A DNA stretch of 64,000 bases from Escherichia coli. GTDB lineage: Bacteria > Pseudomonadota > Gammaproteobacteria > Enterobacterales > Enterobacteriaceae. The notes below the pieces were generated by a model. That model made no database searches. It worked only from the letters and a program-made list of their open reading frames with translations, and was not told the DNA's origin. A program made the position numbers and the translations under genes. Shown here in pieces: positions 2,787 to 62,088 of this stretch. The number at the start of each line of letters is the position of its first letter. Positions within the stretch are counted from its first letter, which is position 1. The stretch lies in NCBI RefSeq assembly GCF_024502345.1, contig NZ_JALDNN010000001.1; one strand, 5' to 3'.

Positions 2787-3116
2787 CTAATTTATGCAAT
2801 GGAAAAGCTGACGGCTCGGTTTGTGTTTTTCATTCGGGTAGACTCGCATTGCGGATGCACAAAGTGATGAAACCTGTCTTGCTATATTTTTACCGAAGTT
2901 AACAAGAAGGCCGTGCTTTATTTTTTCACCCTCTGCCCTGATGCTGATGATAAAGCTGAACTGATATACGATTACCTCAATGAGGTCATTGCCAAATGTT
3001 ATAATGGCGGCGTTGTTTATTTCATGTTCATAATCCCTCAGGTCAGTGTTAAGTCTTGCTGTTGCATCTACAAGTGCGTATTCTTTATCGATAATCATAA
3101 CTTTCTCACTTATCAT
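2787..3116 (-). CDS. hypothetical protein (109 aa), paralog of 60147..60482
   Basis: ORF co-directional with and 40 bp downstream of the WYL regulator gene; conservative substitutions versus its paralog; no strong SD, and an overlapping + strand ORF exists, so strand assignment is tentative. Confidence 0.45.
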   Translation of the reverse strand: MISEKVMIIDKEYALVDATARLNTDLRDYEHEINNAAIITFGNDLIEVIVYQFSFIISIRAEGEKIKHGLLVNFGKNIARQVSSLCASAMRVYPNEKHKPSRQLFHCIN

Positions 3117-3156
3117 GTTAATGTGATTTAATCATCACTAATAATATGTTGTGATT

Positions 3157-3870
3157 TTAATTACGATTATTCGTCTGTTTACTCCCGTAATGCATTATCT
3201 TATGAATAATGTTCATGTGGGGTAAGGCTTCCATAAAGTCAGACTGTTCAATCAGCGAAATGAGTGTGTTATCGATCTCAAACGTTGTATCCGGTAATAC
3301 CTCAACCAGCCTGATTCGGGACAGGGAAATAACGAACACGCCCGATGACGTACATCCGGCAAGAAACCACTCCGCATGGCTGCAAAGCAGACGGTAGGGA
3401 TGAACGGTATGGCTGACGTTTTCGTCGGTTCTGATACGCACCTGGGTCTGGTTAAGTATGGCGAGCGTCAGTCTGCTGAAATCACCGAAAAGGGTGGGTT
3501 TCTGGCGCGGCTCCGGTAGCATAATCCTGTATGGCGAGGGACGTTCCCCGTCAAGCATCAGGCTCAGTAGTTTGGCATCCATCGCGGGTAACAGACGGTC
3601 AAGATGCAGCAACCTCGCCAGTATCTTCATATCCCGTTCCGTGCGGCGACGAAAGTAATGTGAGGCAAGCTGATACACGCCGTTGCTCTGTTCAATATCA
3701 AGGTAGGTCAGACGGACGTTGAAATCCCGTCGCAGCGTTCGCGTCGTCACTCCAAATTCTTCTGCCAGCGTCCCGATATGCAGCTTTTCACCCTGAAACA
3801 AACGGCTCAGGATGATGGAAAGGCGGGTTGCCAGTCTGTCATGTTCGTTTTCTTGTGTTATCAGCGTCAT
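3157..3870 (-). CDS. HTH-WYL domain transcriptional regulator (YfjR/BrxR-like architecture)
   Basis: 237 aa; N-terminal HTH (LAEEFGVTTRTLRRDF) and central W-x-L-type motif (HAEWFLAG); differs from paralog 60523..61236 at about 3 residues. Confidence 0.6.
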   Translation of the reverse strand: MTLITQENEHDRLATRLSIILSRLFQGEKLHIGTLAEEFGVTTRTLRRDFNVRLTYLDIEQSNGVYQLASHYFRRRTERDMKILARLLHLDRLLPAMDAKLLSLMLDGERPSPYRIMLPEPRQKPTLFGDFSRLTLAILNQTQVRIRTDENVSHTVHPYRLLCSHAEWFLAGCTSSGVFVISLSRIRLVEVLPDTTFEIDNTLISLIEQSDFMEALPHMNIIHKIMHYGSKQTNNRN

Positions 3871-3972
3871 ACATCATTTCCGAATTTAGCCGGGAAATGA
3901 TGCCAGCAGTAGCGGACAGGATTTGTCCGCCCTCTGAAGTTTTTTAAAGTCTGAATACCTTAAATGTAAGTG

Positions 3973-4288
3973 CTAAACGTCAGTATTCTCAGGTGAATAA
4001 AGATGCTTCTGGCGCATGTAGGCAATAAAAATGCAGGATGGTAGCGTCACCCGGTATGCGGGACCGGCTAAATCAATCAGCAGCCAGAGAGAACTGAGCA
4101 CCCAGCCCACGGGACCGGCAAAAGCGCCCATGGTACGCGTCAGCATGGCATTTCCTGCAACGGTCAGCCCTCTGCCTAACAGGGCTTTCGCCACACCATT
4201 TGTGACAACAAGTGCCATCTGATAGGCCGCAAACCCGGATGTTTTAATCCCCGCCTGGATTGCCATGGTCAGCAGCTCCGGCGTGGGA
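3973..4288 (-). pseudogene. 3' fragment of the 249-aa module protein (paralog of 61339..62088), truncated at a recombination junction
   Basis: Nucleotide homology to 61339..61660 ends abruptly near 4288; only the C-terminal ~100 codons remain. Confidence 0.6.
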
Positions 4289-4289
4289 T

Positions 4290-4562
4290 TGCTGTATCGC
4301 AGACGATACCGAGCAGGAGATACCAGCCATCATCAAGTGCGGTGACGTATTCCGGGTTAGCCAGTGCCACTGCCAGCAGCGGGTCTTCGGGGAGTGTGTC
4401 ATCGTGGTTGAGATGCCAGAGCAGGGTTCCCGTTTCGTTCCAGAAGGCGGTAAACAGGTCGATATCATCGACAGGGCCAAGGATTTCATTGCTGAGGGCC
4501 ACCAGTGCGGAGGCGGGCAGGTTGAGAAGGGGAAGACTGGTGGGAGTCGTGAGTTTAAACAT
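4290..4562 (-). pseudogene. 5' fragment of an unidentified gene fused to the junction at ~4288
   Basis: Start ATG at 4562 (MFKLTTPTSLPLLNLPASALVALSNEILGPVDD...); reading frame runs into the junction and ends in non-homologous sequence. Confidence 0.3.
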
Positions 4563-17883: not shown

Positions 17884-18578
17884 TTACTCTTTCTCGGAGT
17901 AACTATAACCGTAATAGTTATAGCCGTAACTGTAAGCGGTGCTGGCGCGTTTAATCACACCATTGAGGATAGCGCCTTTAATATTGACGCCTGCCTGTTC
18001 CAGACGCTGCATTGACAAGCTCACCTCTTTGGCGGTGTTCAGGCCAAAACGCGCAACCAGCAGGCTGGTGCCGACAGAGCGCCCCACGACCGCAGCATCG
18101 CTCACCGCCAGCATCGGCGGCGTATCGACAATCACCAGATCGTAATGGTCGTTCGCCCATTCCAGTAATTGACGCATCCGATCGCGCATCAGCAGTTCAG
18201 ACGGGTTAGGTGGCATCTGACCGCGAGTAATCACATCAAAGCCTCCTTTGCCAAAATGCTGGATCACTTTGTTGAGCTCATCTTTACCTGCCAGATATTC
18301 CGACAAGCCATGTGCATTACTCACGGTAAACAGGTTATGCGAATAACCATGGCGTAAGTCGGCATCAATAAATAACACTTTTTGATCGGACTGGGCGATC
18401 ACCGCTGCCAGAGTTGAACTGACAAATGTTTTACCACTGTCTGGCGTCGCACCGGTGATCATCAGAATGTTATTCTCAGTCTCCATCATAGCGAAATGCA
18501 GACTGGTTCGTAGCGCACGTACGGCTTCCACAGCAGAATCCGCCGGGTTATCCACCGCCAGGAAGGGGATATTTTTAG
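17884..18578 (-). pseudogene. etk: tyrosine-protein kinase Etk, 3' fragment truncated by IS5
   Basis: Encodes the C-terminal BY-kinase domain with Walker A GKTFVSSTLAAV and Tyr-rich tail YSYGYNYYGYSYSEKE; coding sequence abuts the IS5 end at 18579. Confidence 0.8.
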
Positions 18579-19773
<1,195 letters not shown>

Positions 19774-20368
19774 CAAGAGAACGCAACAGCGCACTTGCTT
19801 TGCCACAGTTGAATTTTGTGCCGTAACGATGTGCAAGCATGTAAGCATAAGGAGTCAAGGTATAGCGTGTTACTTAGTTACTCGGATTAACAATCCCAAC
19901 GTACAGAGCGGCGGATTTACAGAGTCAGCGCAGTCCCTGCTCCGGCAGTCAGTGGCAGGCGGCGTACTGAAGCAAACCATTATCGATACCGGCATCGGCG
20001 ATACCATCGGCATGCTGATGTCACACGGCAATATTTCTCCCTACATCATGGCGTGGTTGATAACCGTGCTGATCCGTCTGGCAACGGGTCAGGGCGTGGT
20101 CTCAGCCATGACGGCGGCGGGGATTATTAGCGCAGCAATCCTCGACCCGGCAACCGGTCAACTGGTGGGCGTCGACCCGGCGTTGCTGGTGCTGGCAACA
20201 GCGGCTGGCTCCAACACGCTGACCCATATCAACGATGCTTCGTTCTGGCTGTTCAAAGGCTACTTTGATCTGTCGGTGAAGGATACGCTGAAAACCTGGG
20301 GTCTGCTGGAGCTGGTAAACTCCGTGGTTGGCCTGATAATCGTGTTGATCATCAGCATGATTGCATAA
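19774..20368 (+). pseudogene. GntP-family permease, 3' fragment truncated by IS5
   Basis: Frame immediately right of IS5 encodes the hydrophobic C-terminus ...[37 protein letters not shown]...; no N-terminal part present. Confidence 0.55.
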
Positions 20369-27281: not shown

Positions 27282-27557
27282 GTGGCTTCTGTTTCTATCA
27301 GCTGTCCCTCCTGTTCAGCTACTGACGGGGTGGTGCGTAACGGCAAAAGCACCGCCGGACATCAGCGCTATCTCTGCTCTCACTGCCGTAAAACATGGCA
27401 ACTGCAGTTCACTTACACCGCTTCTCAACCCGGTACGCACCAGAAAATCATTGATATGGCCATGAATGGCGTTGGATGCCGGGCAACCGCCCGCATTATG
27501 GGCGTTGGCCTCAACACGATTTTCCGCCATTTAAAAAACTCAGGCCGCAGTCGGTAA
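27282..27557 (+). CDS. insA: IS1 InsA
   Basis: 91 aa, [39 protein letters not shown]... Confidence 0.9.
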
Positions 27558-27979
27558 CCTCGCGCATACAGCCGGGCAGTGACGTCATCGTCTGCGCGGA
27601 AATGGACGAACAGTGGGGATACGTCGGGGCTAAATCGCGCCAGCGCTGGCTGTTTTACGCGTATGACAGGCTCCGGAAGACGGTTGTTGCGCACGTATTC
27701 GGTGAACGCACTATGGCGACGCTGGGGCGTCTTATGAGCCTGCTGTCACCCTTTGACGTGGTGATATGGATGACGGATGGCTGGCCGCTGTATGAATCCC
27801 GCCTGAAGGGAAAGCTGCACGTAATCAGCAAGCGATATACGCAGCGAATTGAGCGGCATAACCTGAATCTGAGGCAGCACCTGGCACGGCTGGGACGGAA
27901 GTCGCTGTCGTTCTCAAAATCGGTGGAGCTGCATGACAAAGTCATCGGGCATTATCTGAACATAAAACACTATCAATAA
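27476..27979 (+). CDS. insB: IS1 InsB (expressed as InsAB' fusion by -1 frameshift)
   Basis: 167-aa ORF overlapping the insA 3' end in the -1 frame. Confidence 0.85.
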
Positions 27980-28253
27980 GTTGGAGTCATTACCGACCGG
28001 GTTAAACCGGAAATGCGACACCTCGGAAGTGTCTCCTGAAAACCTTTCATCAGTACGCTCATCATGCTGTTCATAGAGTAGTCCAAATACAGTACCGTAC
28101 AGTACGGTACGTTTTATATCTTGACTTCTGAGCGCCGTCAAATGAAAATGTACTCGTCAGTACGATTACGAACCCTACTATCTGACGTGATTCCGAAATC
28201 TGAGAACAAAAAGTGTTGGCCCCGGCCAGACACCTAAACTAACGAGGAAACAT

Positions 28254-50013: not shown

Positions 50014-50689
50014 GTACTGACGGGGTGGTGCGTAACGGCAAAAGCACTGCCGGACATCAGCGCTATCTCTGCTCTCACTGCCGTAAAACATGGCAACTGC
50101 AGTTCACTTACACCGCTTCTCAACCCGGTACGCACCAGAAAATCATTGATATGGCCATGAATGGCGTTGGATGCCGGGCAACCGCCCGCATTATGGGCGT
50201 TGGCCTCAACACGATTTTCCGCCATTTAAAAAACTCAGGCCGCAGTCGGTAACCTCGCGCATACAGCCGGGCAGTGACGTCATCGTCTGCGCGGAAATGG
50301 ACGAACAGTGGGGATACGTCGGGGCTAAATCGCGCCAGCGCTGGCTGTTTTACGCGTATGACAGGCTCCGGAAGACGGTTGTTGCGCACGTCTTCGGTGA
50401 ACGCACTCTGGCCACACTGGAGCGTCTTCTGAGCCTGCTGTCGGCCTTTGAGGTCGTGGTATGGATGACGGATGGCTGGCCGCTGTATGAATCACGCCTG
50501 AAGGGAAAGCTGCACGTTATCAGCAAGCGTTACACTCAGCGCATTGAGCGACATAATCTGAATCTGAGACAATATCTGGCAAGGCTGGGACGGAAGTCAC
50601 TGTCGTTCTCAAAATCGGTGGAGCTGCATGACAAGGTCATCGGGCATTATCTGAACATAAAACACTATCAGTAAGTTGGAGTCATTACC
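50014..50689 (+). mobile_element. IS1, 5'-truncated copy (lacks left inverted repeat and start of insA)
   Basis: Match to IS1 begins inside insA (TACTGACGGGGTGGTGCGTAACGG) and continues to the right end ...GAGTCATTACC at 50689. Confidence 0.85.
50171..50674 (+). CDS. insB: IS1 InsB
   Basis: 167 aa, a few substitutions relative to the 27476..27979 copy. Confidence 0.85.
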
Positions 50690-50781: not shown

Positions 50782-52044
50782 CTATTTTAATGGATTGTTA
50801 ATCTTTGCATATTCAAACGGACTGATACCCTTCTCCCGGTTCGCATCCAGAAAATCGGCCCACCATTGCAACATCAGTCGCCGTTCTTCCAGATGTTCTG
50901 CTTTATGGATATACGCAGCACGTACACCATTACGCTCCTGATGGCTCATCTGACGTTCCACAGCATCGCGGGACCACAAACCTGATTCAATCAATGCACT
51001 GCACGCCATCGCCCGGAATCCATGGCCACAGACTTCCTGGGTTGTGTCATACCCCATCACCCTCAGGGCTTTATTTACAGTATTTTCACTGATTGGTTTA
51101 CGCGGGTCATGTGCACCCGTAAATATCAGACCATTTTCACCTGCCCATGTCTGAAGTTCTGTCAGTATGGCTACAGCCTGTTTGCTGAGTGGCACAAGAT
51201 GTGGTGTTCGCATCTTGGAGCCCCGGTGTGAGAATTTTACGCCGGGCAGAGGTTCGCGTTCGGCTGGAATAGTCCACATGGCATTGTCAATATCAATTTC
51301 AGACCACCGGGCGTATCTGAGTTCACTGGAACGAATAAAAACCAGTAAATTCAGCGTAACGGCAAGCTGGGTGACAGGTTGCCCCTTGTAACTGCTAATA
51401 CGCGACAAAAGTTCAGGCAGGCGAGAAAGATCAAGAGCGGGGCGATGCTGGCGTTTTACAGTGGTCAATGCGCCAGCCATATCCAGAGCAGGATTATATC
51501 TGATGATGCCAGACTGTACGGCATAACGCATTACAGCAGATATTCTTTGCTGCAGACGACTGGCGATTTCATAAATTTGTTTAGCTTCTGCGGCACGAAC
51601 AGGGATAAGCAGGTCCGGGGTACGGAGTGTTGTGATATCCCGGTTGCCGATAAAGGGGAAAACGTGTGTCTCGAGGCTTTTGAGTACTTTATCGCTGTGT
51701 GATTGTGCCCATTGTTTATTACTGGCATGCCAGCGTCGTGCAATATGTTCAAAAGAGAGTTGTAAATCAGGGACTACTTTTTTAGCTCTTTTTTGTTCGC
51801 AAGGGTCAACCCCCTCCGAAATCAGTTTTCGGGCCTCATCCCGTTTTGTACGAGCTTCGGAGAGAGAAACTTCCGGATACACACCAAGTGCCAGGGTTTT
51901 CTCCTTACCCAGAATACGATAACGGAGACGCCAGTAACGGGAACCATTAGGATGAACCAGCAGGAACATGCCGGCCCCGTCAGTGAGTTTATAAGCCTTG
52001 TCAGTGGGCTTTGCAGCCCGGATTTTTGCGTCAGTCAGTGCCAT
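50782..52044 (-). CDS. P4-type tyrosine integrase (tRNA-associated genomic island integrase)
   Basis: 420 aa, MALTDAKIRAAKPTDKAYKLTDGAGMFLLV... N-terminal arm-binding domain and catalytic R..HGFR..Y core; adjacent to a tRNA-Phe 3' fragment. Confidence 0.85.
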   Translation of the reverse strand: MALTDAKIRAAKPTDKAYKLTDGAGMFLLVHPNGSRYWRLRYRILGKEKTLALGVYPEVSLSEARTKRDEARKLISEGVDPCEQKRAKKVVPDLQLSFEHIARRWHASNKQWAQSHSDKVLKSLETHVFPFIGNRDITTLRTPDLLIPVRAAEAKQIYEIASRLQQRISAVMRYAVQSGIIRYNPALDMAGALTTVKRQHRPALDLSRLPELLSRISSYKGQPVTQLAVTLNLLVFIRSSELRYARWSEIDIDNAMWTIPAEREPLPGVKFSHRGSKMRTPHLVPLSKQAVAILTELQTWAGENGLIFTGAHDPRKPISENTVNKALRVMGYDTTQEVCGHGFRAMACSALIESGLWSRDAVERQMSHQERNGVRAAYIHKAEHLEERRLMLQWWADFLDANREKGISPFEYAKINNPLK

Positions 52045-52567: not shown

Positions 52568-52906
52568 CTAAAATAGCCGAGCAGCAAACGCCAAAACAAC
52601 AATACTGACATTACCATTAACTGTCGCGATAGTTCTGAGTCGGTCGTCTTTCAGGGTTTTACCGTCAAATGTTGCGATGGTGCGGAGTCGATCGTCTTTC
52701 AGGGTCTTTCCATCAAAGGTAGCGATGGTGCGGAGTCGGTCGTCTTTCAGGGTTTTACCGTCAAAAGTTGCGATGGTTCTGAGCCGGTCGTCTTTCAGGG
52801 TTTTACCGTCAAACGTTGCGATGGTCCTGAGTCGATCATCTTTCAAGGTCTTGCCATCAAAGGTCGCGATAGTCCTGAGTCGATCGTCTTTTATAGTTAC
52901 GCTCAT
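52568..52906 (-). CDS. tandem-repeat protein: five identical 16-aa units (KDDRLRTIATFDGKTL) plus a degenerate sixth
   Basis: 48-bp DNA units differ from each other only at synonymous positions; AGGAGA SD before the second ATG; about 215 bp downstream of hsdR on the same strand. Confidence 0.6.
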   Translation of the reverse strand: MSVTIKDDRLRTIATFDGKTLKDDRLRTIATFDGKTLKDDRLRTIATFDGKTLKDDRLRTIATFDGKTLKDDRLRTIATFDGKTLKDDRLRTIATVNGNVSIVVLAFAARLF

Positions 52907-53127
52907 AAGCATTCTCCTGTGATACGTCCGTTCAGCACTTTACCATCCAAAATAAAGCACTGGTTTCTGTAAGTTCTGGGCGCTAATCATTTGAATATGC
53001 GTTTAAAATCCATCCAGTTAGCATTAACATTAACCAGCGCTTCATCGATCATAACAGGTCTGATGCAGGTTAAAAGATACAATCTTACCTATAAATTGCG
53101 GTAGCGCATTGCTCTGTTATCTGGCAT

Positions 53128-56100
53128 CTAGAGGTGCCCTCCAACCCCTTTAAATTTTTCGATAAACGCCCCAATTTTCTGGAATACGGTCTGCTTTTTC
53201 GTTTTGTACTGAGGATTCAGCGGACTGAGCTTTGGTAGCGTCTCATTTAGCTCAGTGCCATTTTCGGTAGCATACTCCCGTTTGAGTGATGTGCGGATAT
53301 AGCGCCTTGCAGCCTCTTCATTGAGGTTTTCTTCCTTAATCAACGCCTCTGCTTCCCGTTGCTGTTCACGCTGAGCATAGGTAAAGAATGCATCAATGAT
53401 ACTGGCCTTGTCCGGCATGTCATCAAGGTTAGTTTGCTGAATAAAGTCAACAATCAGACCTTCTTTGGCACGGTTGCCCAGACTTGAGCGGATTAAGCGT
53501 CTGACCTCTTCAGTCAGGGCTTCTTTACCTTTTTTCTCTCTGTTGTGGTCGAAAATCAGGCCAAGGATGTAATCCAGGTTAATTTCCTGCGACTTCAGCA
53601 GGTCAATTTCAAACACCACGTCATCCCAGTCTGTGGTTGATTTATCCCTGTCGTTTGATGCTTTTTCGCGTCGCTGCCAGTCCCGGATATCATTGTATGC
53701 TGAGCGATAGTCCTGAACTTTACGTTCTGCCGGGAGACGAATGGTTTGTAATTCAGCAAATTTTTCATCATCCACATAGTGCTCTGCTTTAAAGGTTTCT
53801 ACCGCTTCCGGGTCACTAATATCAACCTTCTGCAGGGCTTTCAGCGTGGCAAATTCATCATAGTTTTGCAGGATGTTTTCTGCCCGCAGATATTCACCAA
53901 ACAGTTTGACGAAGGCTTTTTTCTCTTTTTCACTGTCGATACTGGCAGGGTCAGGGAAGCGCTGCTCCAGCTCCGAAACAACAGCCATAAAACCTCGTTT
54001 AGCCTCACCGGTTGCCGCATCGGTAAAGCCCTGCATGTACTCTTCGTAGCTTTTTTCCAGCACCACATTCTTGGTGTTTTTGTCGCCAAAAAGTGTGATG
54101 GCATCAATGGTCGGACGCTCCAGGTCCCTGAAAGTCACGATATTGCCGAAGGTTTTGGTTGCATCATAGATACGGTTGGTGCGTGAGAATGCCTGCATCA
54201 GACCGTGATAACGCAGGTTTTTGTCAACGAACAGAGTATTGAGCGTCGGGGCATCAAAGCCGGTTAAGAACATTCCCACCACGATGAGAAGGTCGATATC
54301 CTGATTTTTCACTCGTTGAGCTAAATCGCGGTAGTAGTTCTGGAAGCCGTTACTGTCGGTACTGAAATTGGTTTTAAAGTGGTTGTTATAGTCATCAATG
54401 GCTGAATCCAGGAATTCCTTTGCGCTGCTGTTCATTGCGCTGGTATCAAAGCTTTCGTCAGTAATATCACCAATGGCGCTTTGCTCTTCATTAGCAGCAA
54501 AAGAGAAGATGGTTGCCACACGAAGACGTTTATAGCTGCCAGATTTCTTCTCAGCTTCTTCCTGTAGCATTTTAAATGTCGTGTAATAAGCTTTTGCCGC
54601 GTCCACGCTGCTCACTGCTAACATGGCATTGAAGCCTTTTGCTCCCGGGAAGGTACGATGCGTTTTCTGGCGGAAGTTATTGAGAATGTATTGCGTTATT
54701 TCCTGGATACGCAGTGGGTGCAGAAAGGCCTGCTGGTTTTCAGCCGCGCTGAGTTTTTTCTCGTCTGTTTCCGTTTCAAGGGACTTAAACTGTGGGCGGA
54801 CATCGTTATAGTCCACCTTAAACTTCAGCACTTTTTCATCACGAATCGCATCAGTAATTACGTAAGAATGTAATTCACGCCCGAAGACGCTGGCGGTGGT
54901 TTCTGCCCCCAGTGCATTTTCCGGGAAAATAGGCGTACCGGTAAAACCAAACTGATAAAAGCGTCTGAATTTCTTTTTGAGGTTTTTCTGGGCCTCACCA
55001 AACTGGCTGCGGTGACACTCATCAAAGATAAACACCACCTGCTGCTGATAGACGGGCAGGTCAGCTTCGGCTTTCATCAGGTTATTGAGTTTCTGAATGG
55101 TTGTGACGATAATTTTGTTATCGTCCTTATCCAGGTTTCTTCTGAGGCCAGCTGTATTATCCGAACCATTCACACTGTCCGGAGAGAAGCGCTGATACTC
55201 CTTCATGGTCTGGTAATCGAGGTCTTTCCTGTCGACCACGAAGAAGACTTTATCAATAAAGTCCAGCTCGGTTGCCAGTCGTGCGGCCTTAAAACTGGTC
55301 AGGGTTTTTCCTGACCCTGTGGTATGCCAGATAAACCCGCCGCTTTCGGGTTTTGACCAGTTCTTCGCTTTAAAAGAGCTGTTGATTTTCCAGAGAATGC
55401 GCTCAGTGGCCGCTATCTGATAGGGACGCATGACCAGCAGTGTCTGGCTGCTGTCAAACACGCTGTAATTAAACAGAACATTCAGCAGGGTATGCTTCTG
55501 GAAGAAAGTGGCGGTAAAGTCCTTCAGGTCCTTTATCAGGGTGTTATCCGATTTCGCCCAGTTCATGGTGAAATCAAAGCTGTTTTTATCCCGCTTAGTG
55601 GTACTGGCAAAGTACCGGGTATCAGTCCCGTTGGAAATCACGAAGAGTTGCAGGTATTTAAACAGGGAGTTATCGCTGTTAAAGCTTTCCTTGCTGTAAC
55701 GGTGTATCTGGTTAAAGGCTTCACGAATCGCCACGCCGCGCTTTTTGAGTTCGATTTGCACCAGTGGCAGGCCGTTGACCAGAATGGTGACGTCATAACG
55801 GTTAGCGTGTGAGCCGGTCTGCTCAAACTGCTGAATGACCTGCACCTTATTGCGCAGCAGGTTCTTTTTATCTATCAGATAGATGTTTTCCAGACGACCA
55901 TCATCAAACGTAAAATCACAGATATAGTCGATATGGATTTTACGGGTTTTGTCCAGGCTGCTGTCACTGGGGCTGTCCAGATACTGCTCTGCGAAGCGCC
56001 GCCATTCACTTTCGTTAAACTCCACACCATTAAGACGCTGAAGCTGGTCCCGCACATTCGCCAGCATCGCAGTCGGTGACTTAACGGAGATAAACTCATA

Positions 56101-56244
56101 CCCCTGATTAAGAAGGTCCTGAATCAGCTCCCGCTCAAGGTCCAATTCGCTCTGGTAGCTGTCACCGGTATCCATAACTTTTGTGTATTTATCAAGGACG
56201 ATAAAGTTATTGGATTCAGCAATGGTGTGTGTCTGTTGTGTCAT
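53128..56244 (-). CDS. hsdR: Type I restriction enzyme R subunit (Type IC, EcoR124-like)
   Basis: 1038 aa; Walker A GSGKT, DEAH-box [10 protein letters not shown]-terminus [20 protein letters not shown] resembles recalled EcoR124I HsdR. Confidence 0.9.
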
Positions 56245-56307
56245 GGAGCATCCTGTGCGTCATCTGGCAAAGTCCGGAAGGGTATCAGAAGCATCTTCCG
56301 GCATTCA

Positions 56308-56352
56308 TAAAACCTGATACCGGACGGGTGAGAACAAACCCTGCCGGTATCA
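56308..56352 (-). terminator. stem-loop in the hsdS-hsdR intergenic region (possible hsdMS terminator or regulatory structure)
   Basis: 8-bp inverted repeat GATACCGG...CCGGTATC followed by a T-rich run on the minus strand. Confidence 0.35.
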
Positions 56353-56360
56353 ATGGTCCG

Positions 56361-57569
56361 TCAGTTGCTAGTTGTTTCGTGCTTCGGGAAGCTGAACAAC
56401 AAGTCGCGATAGTACTCGTACTGCTTCTGGCGTAGTTCTATTTCACGGGGTAAGCCTTCGGTGATAGAGCTTGTTAATGTGTCGAATTTATCGAGTATGG
56501 TGACAATCCTAACTTGCTCTGACTTTGAAGGGATTGGTAGTAAAAGGTCCTCCATTTGTTTTTTGGATACGGCAGGAATACCTCCTTTCTGCTGAATACC
56601 CGTTAATTTGGTCTCGGATTGTTTCAGATAGTAATAGACATACATCCAATGCAACTGTTCAGTGCTTCTAACAGAGATGGAATAGCAACTATTGCCTGCC
56701 CAGTAAGGAGTGGAACTCTTATTTACAAATCCTGCATTTGCTCCACGCGCACTCACAATAATCTTATCGCCATCATTGTTGAAGTCTTCGTAGTAACCTG
56801 TAGGAGTCCGCCCTCCGTTGTAGACCGGATAATCTGCGTCAGGATTCTGCTTGTCCTTACGGACAAACGCACCAATTGTAATTATTGCTACTTCCCCCAG
56901 ACTCTTCCACTCAACACTCCCCCCCTCAAAACTCAGCAATTGGTTACGATAGTAATTGTACTGCTTTTTACGCATGGTAAGCTCAGCTGTAAGCTCAGCT
57001 GTAAGAGCAGTAAATTTATCCAGAATTCGGACGATTTCAGACTGGATGGTCAGAGACTTTTCAGGATTTTCCGGGCAAGGAATGGGGGCTTTATATGCTG
57101 AAATCATTTGAAGATTCAGCCCACCACGCCCGCTGTTCCCAGATGATATCTGACGTAGATTATCATACTGGGTTTCCAAAAAGTGGAAAATATAATCTGA
57201 ATTGATCTTCCGCTCATCAAATGTAATGGCTGCAAGTGATTGATTGGTGGTTAATTTAATGCGGGTTCTTGCTACTTTACCACGAGTTTTACCCTGACCT
57301 GCTAATGCCATAACAATGGAATTTTCAGGAACAAATTTAGCACTTGAGTTATTTAATCCATCCTCAGTAATGAATGTCTCAGTTTCTTTGATGGTTTTTA
57401 AATTTACTTCACCTGAACTCATCCAGGGGATAGTTCCATGCTCCCAATATTCTGTTTTTTTAGTATCAGGGGTGCCACCAGAATAAATTTTTTTTGCAAC
57501 CTTACCGAGAGGGAACCACTCAACCTCAATCCCCTCCAGCAGTTTTTCCAGATAATTTAGCTTACTCAT
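56361..57569 (-). CDS. hsdS: Type I R-M specificity subunit (Type IC), two TAEL repeats in the central conserved region
   Basis: 402 aa; conserved central ...[27 protein letters not shown]... and C-terminal ...[37 protein letters not shown]; 4-bp overlap with hsdM. Confidence 0.85.
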
Positions 57570-59122
57570 GCCTGCGCCTCGTAGCCTTCAATTTCTGCCA
57601 CAATCGCATCAATGTCTTTGCGTAACTGGTCGATTTTGCTGACCGTGGTTTTAAGCTCAACATTCAGTTCGGTGATATCGACGATTTCACGGGTATCTTT
57701 TGCTTCGACGTAGCTACTGACAGACAGATTGTAGTCATTACCAGCAACAGTCTCTAATGGCACCGTTTTCGCCAGATGGTCAGTATCTGCCTTACTGTTG
57801 AACACATCCATAATCTGCTTAATATGACCATCAGTCAGGATATTGTTATTGGTTTCTTTCTTAAACAACCCGCTGGCGTCAATAAACTGAACGCGGGTAT
57901 CTGTTTTGTGCTTGGACAACACTAGTATGTTAACGGCAATGGTGGTGCCGAAGAACAGATTTGGTGCCAGAGAAATCACCGTTTCAACATAGTTGTTGTC
58001 GACCAGGTACTGGCGGATTTTCTGCTCTGCTCCGCCACGGTAGAAAATACCGGGGAAGCAAACTATTGCTGCACGCCCTTTAGCTGACAGGTAGTTTAGT
58101 GCATGTAGCACAAACGCAAAGTCAGCTTTTGATTTCGGGGCCAGTACGCCAGCAGGAGCAAAGCGCTCATCGTTAATCAGGGTCGGATCATCACTACCAA
58201 TCCACTTAACCGAGTACGGTGGGTTAGAAACAATCGCATCGAACGGTTTTTCATCGCCAAAGTGAGGCTCAGTCAGGGTATTCCCCAACCTGATATCAAA
58301 CTTATCGTAGTTGATGTTGTGCAGGAACATATTCATACGCGCCAGGTTAAACGTCGTATGATTTATCTCTTGTCCGAAAAAACCTTCTTCAATGATATGA
58401 TTATCAAAGTGCTTCTTCGCCTGAAGCAGCAGTGAGCCAGAGCCTGCGGCAGGGTCATAGATTTTGTTGACGTGAGTCTGACCATGCATCGCAAGCTGAG
58501 CAATCAGCTTAGAGACGTGCTGTGGTGTGAAGAACTCCCCGCCAGACTTACCGGCATTCGCCGCATAGTTTGAAATCAGGAACTCGTAGGCATCACCGAA
58601 AAGGTCAATCTGGTGCTCATTAAAATCCCCGAGCTTTAGCCCCTCAACGCCTTTCAGAACGGCAGCGAGGCGGCTGTTTTTGTCTTTGACGGTGTTACCC
58701 AGTCGATTGCTGGTCGTATCGAAATCGGCAAACAGACCTTTGATGTCGGCCTCAGACGGATAGCCGTAGGCAGAGCTTTCAATAGCGACGAAGATACTGT
58801 TTAAATCAGCATTCAGCCTGTCGTTGGTGTTCGCTTTAGCGGCAACGTTGCAGAACAGCTGGCTCGGATAGATGAAATAGCCTTTAGTCCTGATGGCATC
58901 ATCTTTGATGTCATCGGTAATGATGCTGTCATCAAGTGCTGCATAATGTATGCTCTCATCCCCTGCTTCCATGTAGCTGGAAAAATTCTCACTGATGAAG
59001 CGGTAGAAAAGGGCACCGAGTACATACTGTTTAAAATCCCATCCATCTACTGAGCCCCTGACATCATTGGCAATGGCCCAGATTTGACGGTGTAGTTCTG
59101 CACGTTGTTGAAGACTGGTCAT
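57566..59122 (-). CDS. hsdM: Type I R-M N6-adenine DNA methyltransferase subunit
   Basis: 518 aa; catalytic NPPY motif (SNPPYS) and AdoMet-binding region [10 protein letters not shown]. Confidence 0.9.
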
Positions 59123-59710
59123 TTTTATCCTGTTATCGATTCTTGGTTTCGGCTATTGCTGCGATTTTATCGCAATTTTACTTCTTTGACAGGTTTGAGT
59201 GATGCCTGATAGCCTCCCCAATGAAGGTTAAAATGGTTAATGAAATGTACAGAGAATCAATCGGATATGCTGTTTCGATTTCTGGAGCATCATTAGCGGT
59301 GTTTAGGGGCAGTTCATTACATTTCTGACCTTGTATAGATATGCCGTGATGAAATAAACGTTCACAGCCATCATCTGATCGGTGTGCAACAAAGGCGTCA
59401 TTCATTAAATACGCAGAGAGCCTGACTTATTGCGTCAACGGGTGAGTTACAATGTTGAATCTGGTAACGCCAAAACTGTGTAATTATCTACGCTAAATCA
59501 TTTCTGGTTAGCGTGACCGACGCCGGCGGTCTTAAGATGTACAATTCTTACTGTCTCCGAATGAATTTTATTTATTCAAACAGACTTGGGTGATATTATT
59601 ATCAAGTGAAAATGCCTGTTACCTACCTTGATGATATATACAGTGTTTTTACAGATGAATTTATATGTTTGTAATCAATGCGTGAGTTTGATGTTTTTAA
59701 GGTTAGTTAA

Positions 59711-60031
59711 ATGAAACAGCTATTGGATTTTATAATTGGAAGTTGTGTGGATAACAGAACCAAATTTCAGTTGCTTGCAGTTTGTTATCCAAAATGTAAG
59801 GATGATGAAGTGATGTTGATTTTGCGCTGGAGGGTAGCTGATTTGTATGCGCATGAACTGGAAGTTCAGAATTATCTTTTTAGAGAGCTGGAAGGTATCA
59901 TAGAGAAAATCACGGGCCTGCCTGAAACCTATTTTGTATCAAGCTATAAATCACTATTGACCGATGATTTTAGAGAACTCACAGCAGCGGGGGTTGATGT
60001 TTGTAAGTTTATTATGGAAAACAAAGGTTAG
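59711..60031 (+). CDS. hypothetical small protein (106 aa) in the variable slot between hsdM and the WYL module
   Basis: AT-rich ORF with AAGG SD 8 nt upstream; divergent from hsdM; occupies the position held by the GmrSD-like gene in the left-hand locus. Confidence 0.4.
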   Translation: MKQLLDFIIGSCVDNRTKFQLLAVCYPKCKDDEVMLILRWRVADLYAHELEVQNYLFRELEGIIEKITGLPETYFVSSYKSLLTDDFRELTAAGVDVCKFIMENKG

Positions 60032-60146
60032 TTGGATAAGAACCAACACATTTTCAGGTTCTGTTCTGGCTGAGGAACCTGAATATTCAATCAATGTGTT
60101 AGTTCTATTTTTGATGGTTAGATTTAAATGTGATTCTTTTGCGGTG

Positions 60147-60482
60147 TTATACTGCTGTTATGCATCTAAAAAGCTGACGGCTTTGTTTATGTTTTATGTT
60201 CGGATAGATTCTCATCGCAGCTGCACAGAGAGGTGAAACCTGCCTTGCTATATTTTTACCAAAGTTAACAAGAAGACCATGCTTGATCTTTTCACTATTC
60301 GTTCTGACTTTGATGACAAAGCTGAACTGATATACGATTACCTCAATGAGGTCATTGCCAAATGTTATACTGGCAGCGTTGTTTATTTCATGTTCATAAT
60401 TCCTCAGGTCAGTGTTAAGTCTTGCTGTTGCATCTACAAGTGCGTATTCTTTATCGATAATCATAACTTTCTCACTTATCAT
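60147..60482 (-). CDS. hypothetical protein (111 aa), paralog of 2787..3116
   Basis: Last gene of the module operon; conservative substitutions versus its paralog. Confidence 0.45.
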   Translation of the reverse strand: MISEKVMIIDKEYALVDATARLNTDLRNYEHEINNAASITFGNDLIEVIVYQFSFVIKVRTNSEKIKHGLLVNFGKNIARQVSPLCAAAMRIYPNIKHKQSRQLFRCITAV

Positions 60483-60522
60483 GTTAATGTGATTTAATCA
60501 TCACTAATAATATGTTGTGATT

Positions 60523-61236
60523 TTAATTGCGATTATTCGGTTGTTTTGCCCCGTAATGCATTATCTGATGAATAATGTTCATGTGGGGTAAGGCTTCCAT
60601 AAAGTCAGACTGTTCAATCAGCGAAATGAGTGTGTTATCGATCTCAAACGTTGTATCCGGTAATACCTCAACCAGCCTGATTCGGGACAGGGAAATAACG
60701 AACACGCCCGATGACGTACATCCGGCAAGAAACCACTCCGCATGGCTGCAAAGCAGACGGTAGGGATGAACGGTATGGCTGACGTTTTCGTCGGTTCTGA
60801 TACGCACCTGGGTCTGGTTAAGTATGGCGAGCGTCAGTCTGCTGAAATCACCGAAAAGGGTGGGTTTCTGGCGCGGCTCCGGTAGCATAATCCTGTATGG
60901 CGAGGGACGTTCCCCGTCAAGCATCAGGCTCAGTAGTTTGGCATCCATCGCGGGTAACAGACGGTCAAGATGCAGCAACCTCGCCAGTATCTTCATATCC
61001 CGTTCCGTGCGGCGACGAAAGTAATGTGAGGCAAGCTGATACACGCCGTTGCTCTGTTCAATATCAAGGTAGGTCAGACGGACGTTGAAATCCCGTCGCA
61101 GCGTTCGCGTCGTCACTCCAAATTCTTCTGCCAGCGTCCCGATATGCAGCTTTTCACCCTGAAACAAACGGCTCAGGATGATGGAAAGGCGGGTTGCCAG
61201 TCTGTCATGTTCGTTTTCTTGTGTTATCAGCGTCAT
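60523..61236 (-). CDS. HTH-WYL domain transcriptional regulator (paralog of 3157..3870)
   Basis: 237 aa; same motifs as the left-hand copy. Confidence 0.6.
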   Translation of the reverse strand: MTLITQENEHDRLATRLSIILSRLFQGEKLHIGTLAEEFGVTTRTLRRDFNVRLTYLDIEQSNGVYQLASHYFRRRTERDMKILARLLHLDRLLPAMDAKLLSLMLDGERPSPYRIMLPEPRQKPTLFGDFSRLTLAILNQTQVRIRTDENVSHTVHPYRLLCSHAEWFLAGCTSSGVFVISLSRIRLVEVLPDTTFEIDNTLISLIEQSDFMEALPHMNIIHQIMHYGAKQPNNRN

Positions 61237-61338
61237 ACATCATTTCCGAATTTAGCCGGGAAATGATGCCAGCAGTAGCGGACAGGATTTGTCCGCCCTC
61301 TGAAGTTTTTTAAAGTCTGAATACCTTAAATGTAAGTG

Positions 61339-62088
61339 CTAAACGTCAGTATTCTCAGGTGAATAAAGATGCTTCTGGCGCATGTAGGCAATAAAAATGC
61401 AGGATGGTAGCGTCACCCGGTATGCGGGACCGGCTAAATCAATCAGCAGCCAGAGAGAACTGAGCACCCAGCCCACGGGACCGGCAAAAGCGCCCATGGT
61501 ACGCGTCAGCATGGCATTTCCTGCAACGGTCAGCCCTCTGCCTAACAGGGCTTTCGCCACACCATTTGTGACAACAAGTGCCATCTGATAGGCCGCAAAC
61601 CCGGATGTTTTAATCCCCGCCTGGATTGCCATGGTCAGCAGCTCCGGCGTGGGATTGCTGTAGCCTGTCTGCAATTCTTCCGCCACGGTCTTTAGCTGAG
61701 CGGGTGTCATCTTCTCAAGGCTTTTCTCCAGGATCTTCATCAGCAGATTCATTTCAATGGTTTCAACACTGGATTTGCTGTTGTAGTTCACCTTCATTTT
61801 ATCGCAGGCATCGGTAAGAATTTCCCGGTACAGCACCCCTTTACCCCAGCGGAGCAGCGTGGCAAAGCTGTTCGCCCCAAACGTCTGAACTTCGGCGGCA
61901 ATGGCATCCCAGTAGCGCGGGTGGTTGGGCTTGTGTTTTTTATACTGAGGATCATAGGTCAGCGTTTCCGTGATGCGTGCCAGTCCGTCTTTCGGATCGC
62001 AGATAAGCACAGAAACCAGTAAATCCAGATCGTCACGATGACAGTGGCGCAGAAACTCAAGGTCGGGGTCGTGTCGGTAGGTAGCCAT
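61339..62088 (-). CDS. hypothetical protein (249 aa) with Gly/Ala-rich hydrophobic C-terminal segment
   Basis: GAGGTGA SD; C-terminus ...GVAKALLGRGLTVAGNAMLTRTMGAFAGPVGWVLSSLWLLIDLAGPAY looks membrane-associated; first gene of the module. Confidence 0.55.
   Translation of the reverse strand: MATYRHDPDLEFLRHCHRDDLDLLVSVLICDPKDGLARITETLTYDPQYKKHKPNHPRYWDAIAAEVQTFGANSFATLLRWGKGVLYREILTDACDKMKVNYNSKSSVETIEMNLLMKILEKSLEKMTPAQLKTVAEELQTGYSNPTPELLTMAIQAGIKTSGFAAYQMALVVTNGVAKALLGRGLTVAGNAMLTRTMGAFAGPVGWVLSSLWLLIDLAGPAYRVTLPSCIFIAYMRQKHLYSPENTDV

Follow-up and report, generated by a model that had tools for sequence, protein, structure and literature searches.

EcoR124I, which is encoded on plasmid R124, is the prototype of the Type IC family of restriction–modification (R-M) systems; assignment of an R-M system to a family relies on sequence similarity, on complementation and on the cross-reaction of antibodies (PMC3874165). 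Conserved domain D1 contains a 12-bp sequence that is present twice in EcoR124I and three times in EcoR124II, as summarized in a 2014 review (PMC3874165). EcoR124I (two units) recognizes GAAN6RTCG with a methylation interval of 7, whereas EcoR124II (three units) recognizes GAAN7RTCG with an interval of 8; EcoDXXI and EcoprrI likewise combine three units with an N7 gap and an interval of 8 (PMC3874165). In hybrids of EcoR124I and EcoDXXI an altered unit number shifted the gap exactly as predicted (PMC3874165), and in a 2023 study the deletion of one unit turned EcoR124II into EcoR124I (PMC10644984). Reassortment of target-recognition domains (TRDs) is also known for the Type IC family (PMC3874165). 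Changes in repeat number that alter methylation have been described as well for phase-variable Type I hsdS genes (Atack et al., 2020; PMC7383803) and for hsdS of Mycoplasma pneumoniae (PMC8836594); the tracts in these genes are long and are often out of frame (ON/OFF) or present in many copies.

Here, an hsdS gene with this type of repeat is described from a stretch of 64 kb of Escherichia coli DNA, referred to below as the window. The locus resembles EcoR124I in its gene order, in its two TAEL units and in the N-terminal, central and C-terminal conserved regions of HsdS. It differs from EcoR124I in both TRDs, in the residue following the repeat (T in TAELTM, as opposed to N in TAELNM) and in being chromosomal and island-borne rather than carried on R124. 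Membership of the Type IC family and the repeat unit itself are shared with EcoR124II (EcoR124/3), EcoDXXI and EcoprrI, but these carry three units, the state after the gain of one, where the window gene carries two. Since this allele is recorded in the two-unit form only and the tract comprises 2.4 copies, the repeat is very probably the commoner, static two-unit state of a rarely changing ruler in an intact EcoR124-family operon.

Operon organization and family membership

The three hsd genes lie on the minus strand in the order hsdM, hsdS, hsdR, as in Type IC systems (Table 1). HsdM matched EcoR124 HsdM (PDB entry 7bst_D) with 1089 bits and ∼33 differences in 517 residues (∼94% identity), and the next-best HsdM in the PDB scored 320 bits. 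HsdR matched EcoR124 HsdR (PDB entry 2w00_A) over residues 1–1037 with 2125 bits, which is close to the score of a self-match. TIGR00497 (HsdM) and TIGR00348 both scored above their cut-offs. All three genes are full length, and no frameshifts or IS insertions were found in the region 53128–59122. The stop codon of hsdM and the start codon of hsdS overlap in the sequence ATGA, which suggests that the two genes are translationally coupled. The spacer between hsdS and hsdR measures 116 bp and contains no ORF, in contrast to EcoprrI, in which prrC is located at this position. No consensus match for a separate hsdR promoter was found in the spacer; the promoter/terminator consensus scan was uninformative (four promoter-like sites compared with 6.1 expected).

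No HsdS model in NCBIfam reached its cut-off for the 402-aa protein, and the assignment of HsdS was therefore made through alignments with PDB entries and homologues. PF01420 is present, and the protein aligned with the EcoR124 specificity subunit (PDB entry 7bst_A) with E = 6.8e-88. Residues 1–25, ∼150–227 and ∼350–402 are almost identical to those of 7bst_A and the two domains between them are not; the N-terminal TRD of the window protein aligned only weakly with EcoR124, its best match being to TRD2 (56 bits). As the TRDs differ from those of EcoR124, the half-sites of the window enzyme are not expected to be GAA and RTCG. The central region could be aligned almost residue for residue, both TAEL units included. 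A failure of this region to align with Type IC HsdS had been named in the initial annotation as the observation that would speak against a Type IC assignment; the good alignment, together with the HsdM identity and the near-self score of HsdR, instead bears the assignment out. The similarity of HsdM and HsdR, the operon order and the D1/D2 layout of HsdS with its TAEL repeats all agree with Type IC at the sequence level, and as judged from these features the locus is an intact EcoR124-family (Type IC) R-M operon.

PDB entry 7bst_A is labelled 'EcoR124II specificity protein' yet contains two TAEL units, as expected for EcoR124I. The names given in databases to the EcoR124I and EcoR124II variants are not a reliable guide to unit number.

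Table 1. Coordinates of the hsd genes, the parts of hsdS and the related second locus in the window.
Feature	Position	Strand	Remarks
Second Type IC hsdM, 5′ part	3–644	−	99% amino-acid and 93.7% nucleotide identity to the first; runs off the window start
GmrSD/DUF262 ORF, 625 aa	848–2725	−	Follows second hsdM
Copy of 1.5-kb regulatory module	2803–4296		97% identical to 60169–61662
hsdR, 1038 aa	53128–56244	−	Full-length match to EcoR124 HsdR
hsdS, 402-aa Type IC specificity subunit	56361–57569	−	Identical to WP_256632718.1 (E. coli)
C-terminal conserved region D2 (second coiled-coil helix)	56361–56519	−	Nearly identical to EcoR124 HsdS
C-terminal target-recognition domain TRD2, ∼residues 227–350	56520–56891	−	Approximate boundaries
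Central conserved region D1 (first coiled-coil helix)	56892–57085	−	Holds the repeat
12-bp tandem repeat tract	56977–57005	−	2.4 copies; CTTACAGCTGAG ×2 + CTTAC on the coding strand
N-terminal target-recognition domain TRD1, ∼residues 21–160	57090–57509	−	Approximate boundaries
hsdM, 518 aa	57566–59122	−	∼94% identical to EcoR124 HsdM

The repeat tract

The window contains exactly two copies of GTAAGCTCAGCT, which abut on the plus strand at 56977–56988 and 56989–57000. The 12-bp periodicity continues beyond the exact duplication to 57005, and the resulting array (period 12, 2.4 copies, 100% matches) was the sole one reported at this position by Tandem Repeats Finder. On the coding strand the tract consists of two copies of CTTACAGCTGAG followed by CTTAC and is in frame with the 402-aa ORF; the eight codons of TAELTAEL occupy 56979–57002 and specify HsdS residues 190–197. 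[quoted passage not shown] In the initial annotation the duplication had been located at 56978–57001 and translated as TAELTAEL between the two TRDs of hsdS; the duplication is real and the translation is correct in the frame of this ORF, whereas the coordinates were one base off, the DNA register being 56977–57000. No other period-12 tract of 29 bp or more was present in the 64-kb window. When the window was simulated 300 times under a first-order Markov model, no comparable tract arose, and duplication by chance was ruled out on this basis.

Other repeats were noted in the window. A 48-bp tandem repeat at 52611–52891 (5.9 copies, 84% match) lies in an ORF on the minus strand (52568–52912) between the integrase gene and hsdR and encodes KDDRLRTIATFDGKTL about five times; the homologue of this 114-aa ORF in E. 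coli G3/10 is annotated as a '5-fold beta-flower protein'. A perfect tandem repeat of seven 9-bp units (ACACCTACA) at 45493–45555 specifies a (TPT)n linker in a plus-strand ORF of 1016 aa (43486–46536) that is autotransporter-like by sequence, and an in-frame change in its copy number could alter the length of the linker. Two internal repeat pairs of 95.9% identity were also found: one of 1.2 kb (18576–19777 and 42148–43350) and one of 675 bp (27320–27994 and 50015–50689), the latter overlapping IS1-like ORFs near 50.0–50.7 kb.

Modular composition of hsdS

Each TRD of the window HsdS is found in other alleles, in other company. TRD1 is 99–100% identical at the protein level to the TRD1 of dozens of alleles whose TRD2s are unrelated, and TRD2 is 99–100% identical to that of alleles from E. 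coli, Klebsiella and Salmonella with unrelated TRD1s. The same pattern was seen in the DNA: nt 485–1209 of the gene are common to E. coli chromosomes such as that of MRY15-117 (98.6% identity) and nt 1–678 are matched by a Shigella dysenteriae plasmid (95.1% identity). As the two matches overlap solely in the central conserved region (nt 485–678), this region is probably where TRDs are reassorted. The window hsdS appears to be one more product of such reassortment, with its repeat situated in a conserved segment that would be prone to recombination.

The complete pair of TRD1 and TRD2 was found only in the WP_256632718.1 allele. The exact protein is encoded on three contigs in the databases searched, and the whole hsdS gene is absent from the complete E. 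coli genomes and plasmids of the collections searched. No recognition motif for TRD1 or TRD2 was found in the literature; the paper on the ST131 methylome deals with different Type I families. The allele is a new, previously uncharacterised TRD combination within a textbook family, with a well known two-unit spacer.

Island context and a second Type IC locus

The operon is located in an island that is flanked by a P4-type integrase gene (50782–52044) and IS1, with a layout like that of an island in E. coli G3/10. A second, related defence island lies in direct orientation at a distance of ∼58.5 kb. The initial annotation anticipated a paralogue beyond the start of the window, and such a locus was indeed detected, in the form of a second Type IC hsdM that starts at 644 and continues past position 1; it is reasonable to expect a paralogous hsdS just beyond this position. 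The N-terminal parts of the two HsdM proteins are 99% identical over 214 aa. Beside the focal hsdM, ∼1 kb of unrelated sequence (59179–60168) replaces the DUF262 gene. The contigs that were reached via neighbouring genes belong to short-read assemblies and break inside the duplicated hsdM. Two Type IC systems in one genome would have interchangeable HsdM and HsdR in common, and TRDs or repeat units could pass between them; this is the one way in which the locus might depart from the ordinary.

Unit number among relatives

Two units were present in 113 of the best 120 homologues. Among 68 loci, 39 had two units, 28 had three and one had four; this set was drawn from 67 species-level Type IC loci of many phyla (HsdM identity of at least 80%) together with the E. 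coli G3/10 locus and that of the window. A Type IC-like central region was found in 1288 of 5426 complete E. coli genomes, or about a quarter. Of 58 E. coli matches sampled at even spacing, 30 had the length of the window gene, 21 were longer by 12 bp, and one each was longer by 24 and 36 bp. The last two were verified to carry four and five units, respectively, and both are situated in IS-damaged loci, which hints that longer TAEL tracts accumulate once selection on the enzyme relaxes. The four-unit allele is from E. coli 1000C-3 (NZ_CP091427.1), where an IS4-like element covers the 3′ end of hsdS at the expected position of hsdR; the five-unit allele is from E. coli ETEC1717 (NZ_CP122876.1), where hsdS is truncated at its 5′ end beside IS3.

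Pairs of alleles that are exactly one unit apart were found in several hosts. A Klebsiella pneumoniae HsdS of 394 aa (P0066) is identical to a protein of 398 aa (P0037) apart from the loss of one TAEL and represents a one-unit allele; it is present on eight contigs from several samples. P0024, a second one-unit allele, likewise equals its two-unit partner P0014 (Salmonella) minus four residues, one TAEL. Three of the K. pneumoniae contigs were inspected for their surroundings (L082–L084): two of them have an intact hsdR, in the third this gene is interrupted by an IS, and a Pfam AIDA/Autotransporter gene is located nearby. An hsdS that is widespread on E. coli plasmids was found in two forms, one of 1284 bp (100% matches) and one of 1272 bp ('99.1%' matches), both of which are common. 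The genes of pEC542_1 and of the JS316 plasmid differ over 1284 nt solely by one CTTACCGCTGAG unit, and the encoded proteins are WP_001617890.1 (427 aa, three TAEL) and WP_023142242.1 (423 aa, two TAEL). Around 300 records contain this plasmid allele at an identity of at least 99%, and both forms recur in the evenly spaced sample. The 427-aa and 423-aa proteins may be regarded as a natural EcoR124I/II-type pair; they provide a present-day analogue of EcoR124I and EcoR124II and of the change proposed for the window gene, but are plasmid-borne, have TRDs unlike those of the window protein and form a pair for which no counterpart was found with the window allele.

The units within a gene are more alike than units taken from different genes. 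TAEL units of the same gene differed by a mean of 0.30 nt, compared with 1.73 nt when the units were permuted among genes, and none of 5000 permutations gave a value as low as 0.30 nt. From each gene's own codon usage a difference of 2.9 nt was expected; 46 of 47 genes fell below this expectation, and shared codon bias was ruled out as the origin of identical units within a gene. Twenty DNA spellings of TAEL occur among the genes, and variants such as TTEL and EAEL are repeated within a gene. The near-identity of units within genes is best read as the footprint of recurrent unit duplication and loss.

Discussion

The gene anatomy, the family membership and the copy-number changes in relatives were established in the present analysis, and the mapping of unit number onto the recognition gap is taken from the literature; the statement in the initial annotation that two and three units correspond to N6 and N7 and are interconverted by unequal crossing-over agrees with the review of the family (PMC3874165). 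The repeat is known in this family as a molecular ruler: the antiparallel coiled coil of HsdS holds the two TRDs apart, and with each 12-bp unit its first helix is longer by four residues (TAEL), or roughly a single turn. Since EcoR124I also carries two units, a 7-nt interval between the methylated adenines is predicted here too. The site would be bipartite and of the EcoR124I spacing class, typically written half-site–N6–half-site, although the N6 notation depends on the half-site lengths; the half-sites themselves would be fixed by the TRD1 and TRD2 pair of WP_256632718.1. Given the exact duplication in the DNA and the preserved reading frame, a unit could be gained or lost without inactivation of the gene. 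Replication slippage or unequal crossing-over would add or remove one unit, leave the gene functional and shift the gap by 1 bp. We infer the activity of the WP_256632718.1 enzyme, its half-sites, its 7-nt interval and its ability to change from the sequence and from its described relatives. The second Type IC locus of the genome could supply HsdM and HsdR or compete for them, which makes a view of the operon as a lone system too simple.

If the repeat were a contingency locus, its unit number would flip often between two and three (or one) within a culture, so that methylation specificities would be mixed and the restriction barrier would vary. The exact, in-frame DNA copies, the family-wide homogenisation of units within genes and the abundance in E. 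coli of both two-unit and three-unit versions of one plasmid allele would suit this reading, as would the alternate expression of EcoR124 and EcoR124/3, the original observation in the family as cited in PMC3874165. A long hypermutable tract with length heterogeneity, by which phase-variable R-M genes are recognized, was nevertheless not found: the tract is 29 bp long, far below the length of simple-sequence tracts in R-M genes known to be phase-variable (PMC7383803), and no length variants of the allele were detected. All three contigs that encode WP_256632718.1 have two units, a thin sample (n = 3), and no version with one or three units was seen among the top matches of a search of 5.8 billion proteins (where a near-identical variant of 398 or 406 aa was looked for), in cluster look-ups or on the encoding contigs. 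A new specificity would also leave the chromosome unmodified and exposed, so that such switches are probably counterselected or infrequent. In contrast to the long tracts of the genes described in PMC7383803 and PMC8836594, a tract of 2.4 copies in frame would change the spacing and not the expression of the enzyme. Phase variation at this locus is therefore considered to be very improbable. The suggested capacity of the locus to switch specificity is supported only indirectly: the comparison of unit numbers proposed in the initial annotation did reveal pairs of otherwise identical alleles one unit apart, on E. coli plasmids as well as in K. pneumoniae and Salmonella; the window allele itself occurred in the two-unit form only, and frequent switching was not observed.

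A second rival reading, in which the repeat is a fixed feature of the coiled coil and its unit number is of no functional consequence in a silent or decaying system, was judged to be distinctly improbable. The operon does lie in an island flanked by an integrase gene and IS1, IS elements often hit related loci, and the DUF262/GmrSD gene that partners hsdM in related islands is missing beside the window copy; however, hsdM, hsdS and hsdR are all intact, which disfavours decay, they are near-identical to the biochemically active EcoR124 proteins, and the whole of the operon region is free of frameshifts and IS insertions. A more dynamic model, which we regard as rather unlikely, starts from the near-perfect DNA identity of the units within each gene, which holds across phyla although different genes spell the unit differently: the tract would be a hair-trigger ruler, maintained through ongoing gain and loss of units or through selected evolvability, and the two co-resident loci could swap units and TRDs by gene conversion and draw on a common pool of HsdM and HsdR. 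Were it true, gene conversion and the shared HsdM/HsdR pool would amount to a specificity-shuffling system that works without an invertase. According to the static-ruler reading preferred here, a change in unit number would be a real but rare evolutionary route in the Type IC family and not a fast phase switch.

The strain is predicted from these genes to restrict incoming DNA at a bipartite site with the EcoR124I spacing, the half-sites of which would depend on an uncharacterised pair of TRDs. The predicted spacing would matter for transforming the strain or for interpreting its methylome, and its practical value is modest. For the family, the survey leaves the existing understanding unchanged and adds evidence from present-day populations for the classical EcoR124I/II mechanism, in the form of alleles with one to five units, pairs of alleles one unit apart and homogenised units.
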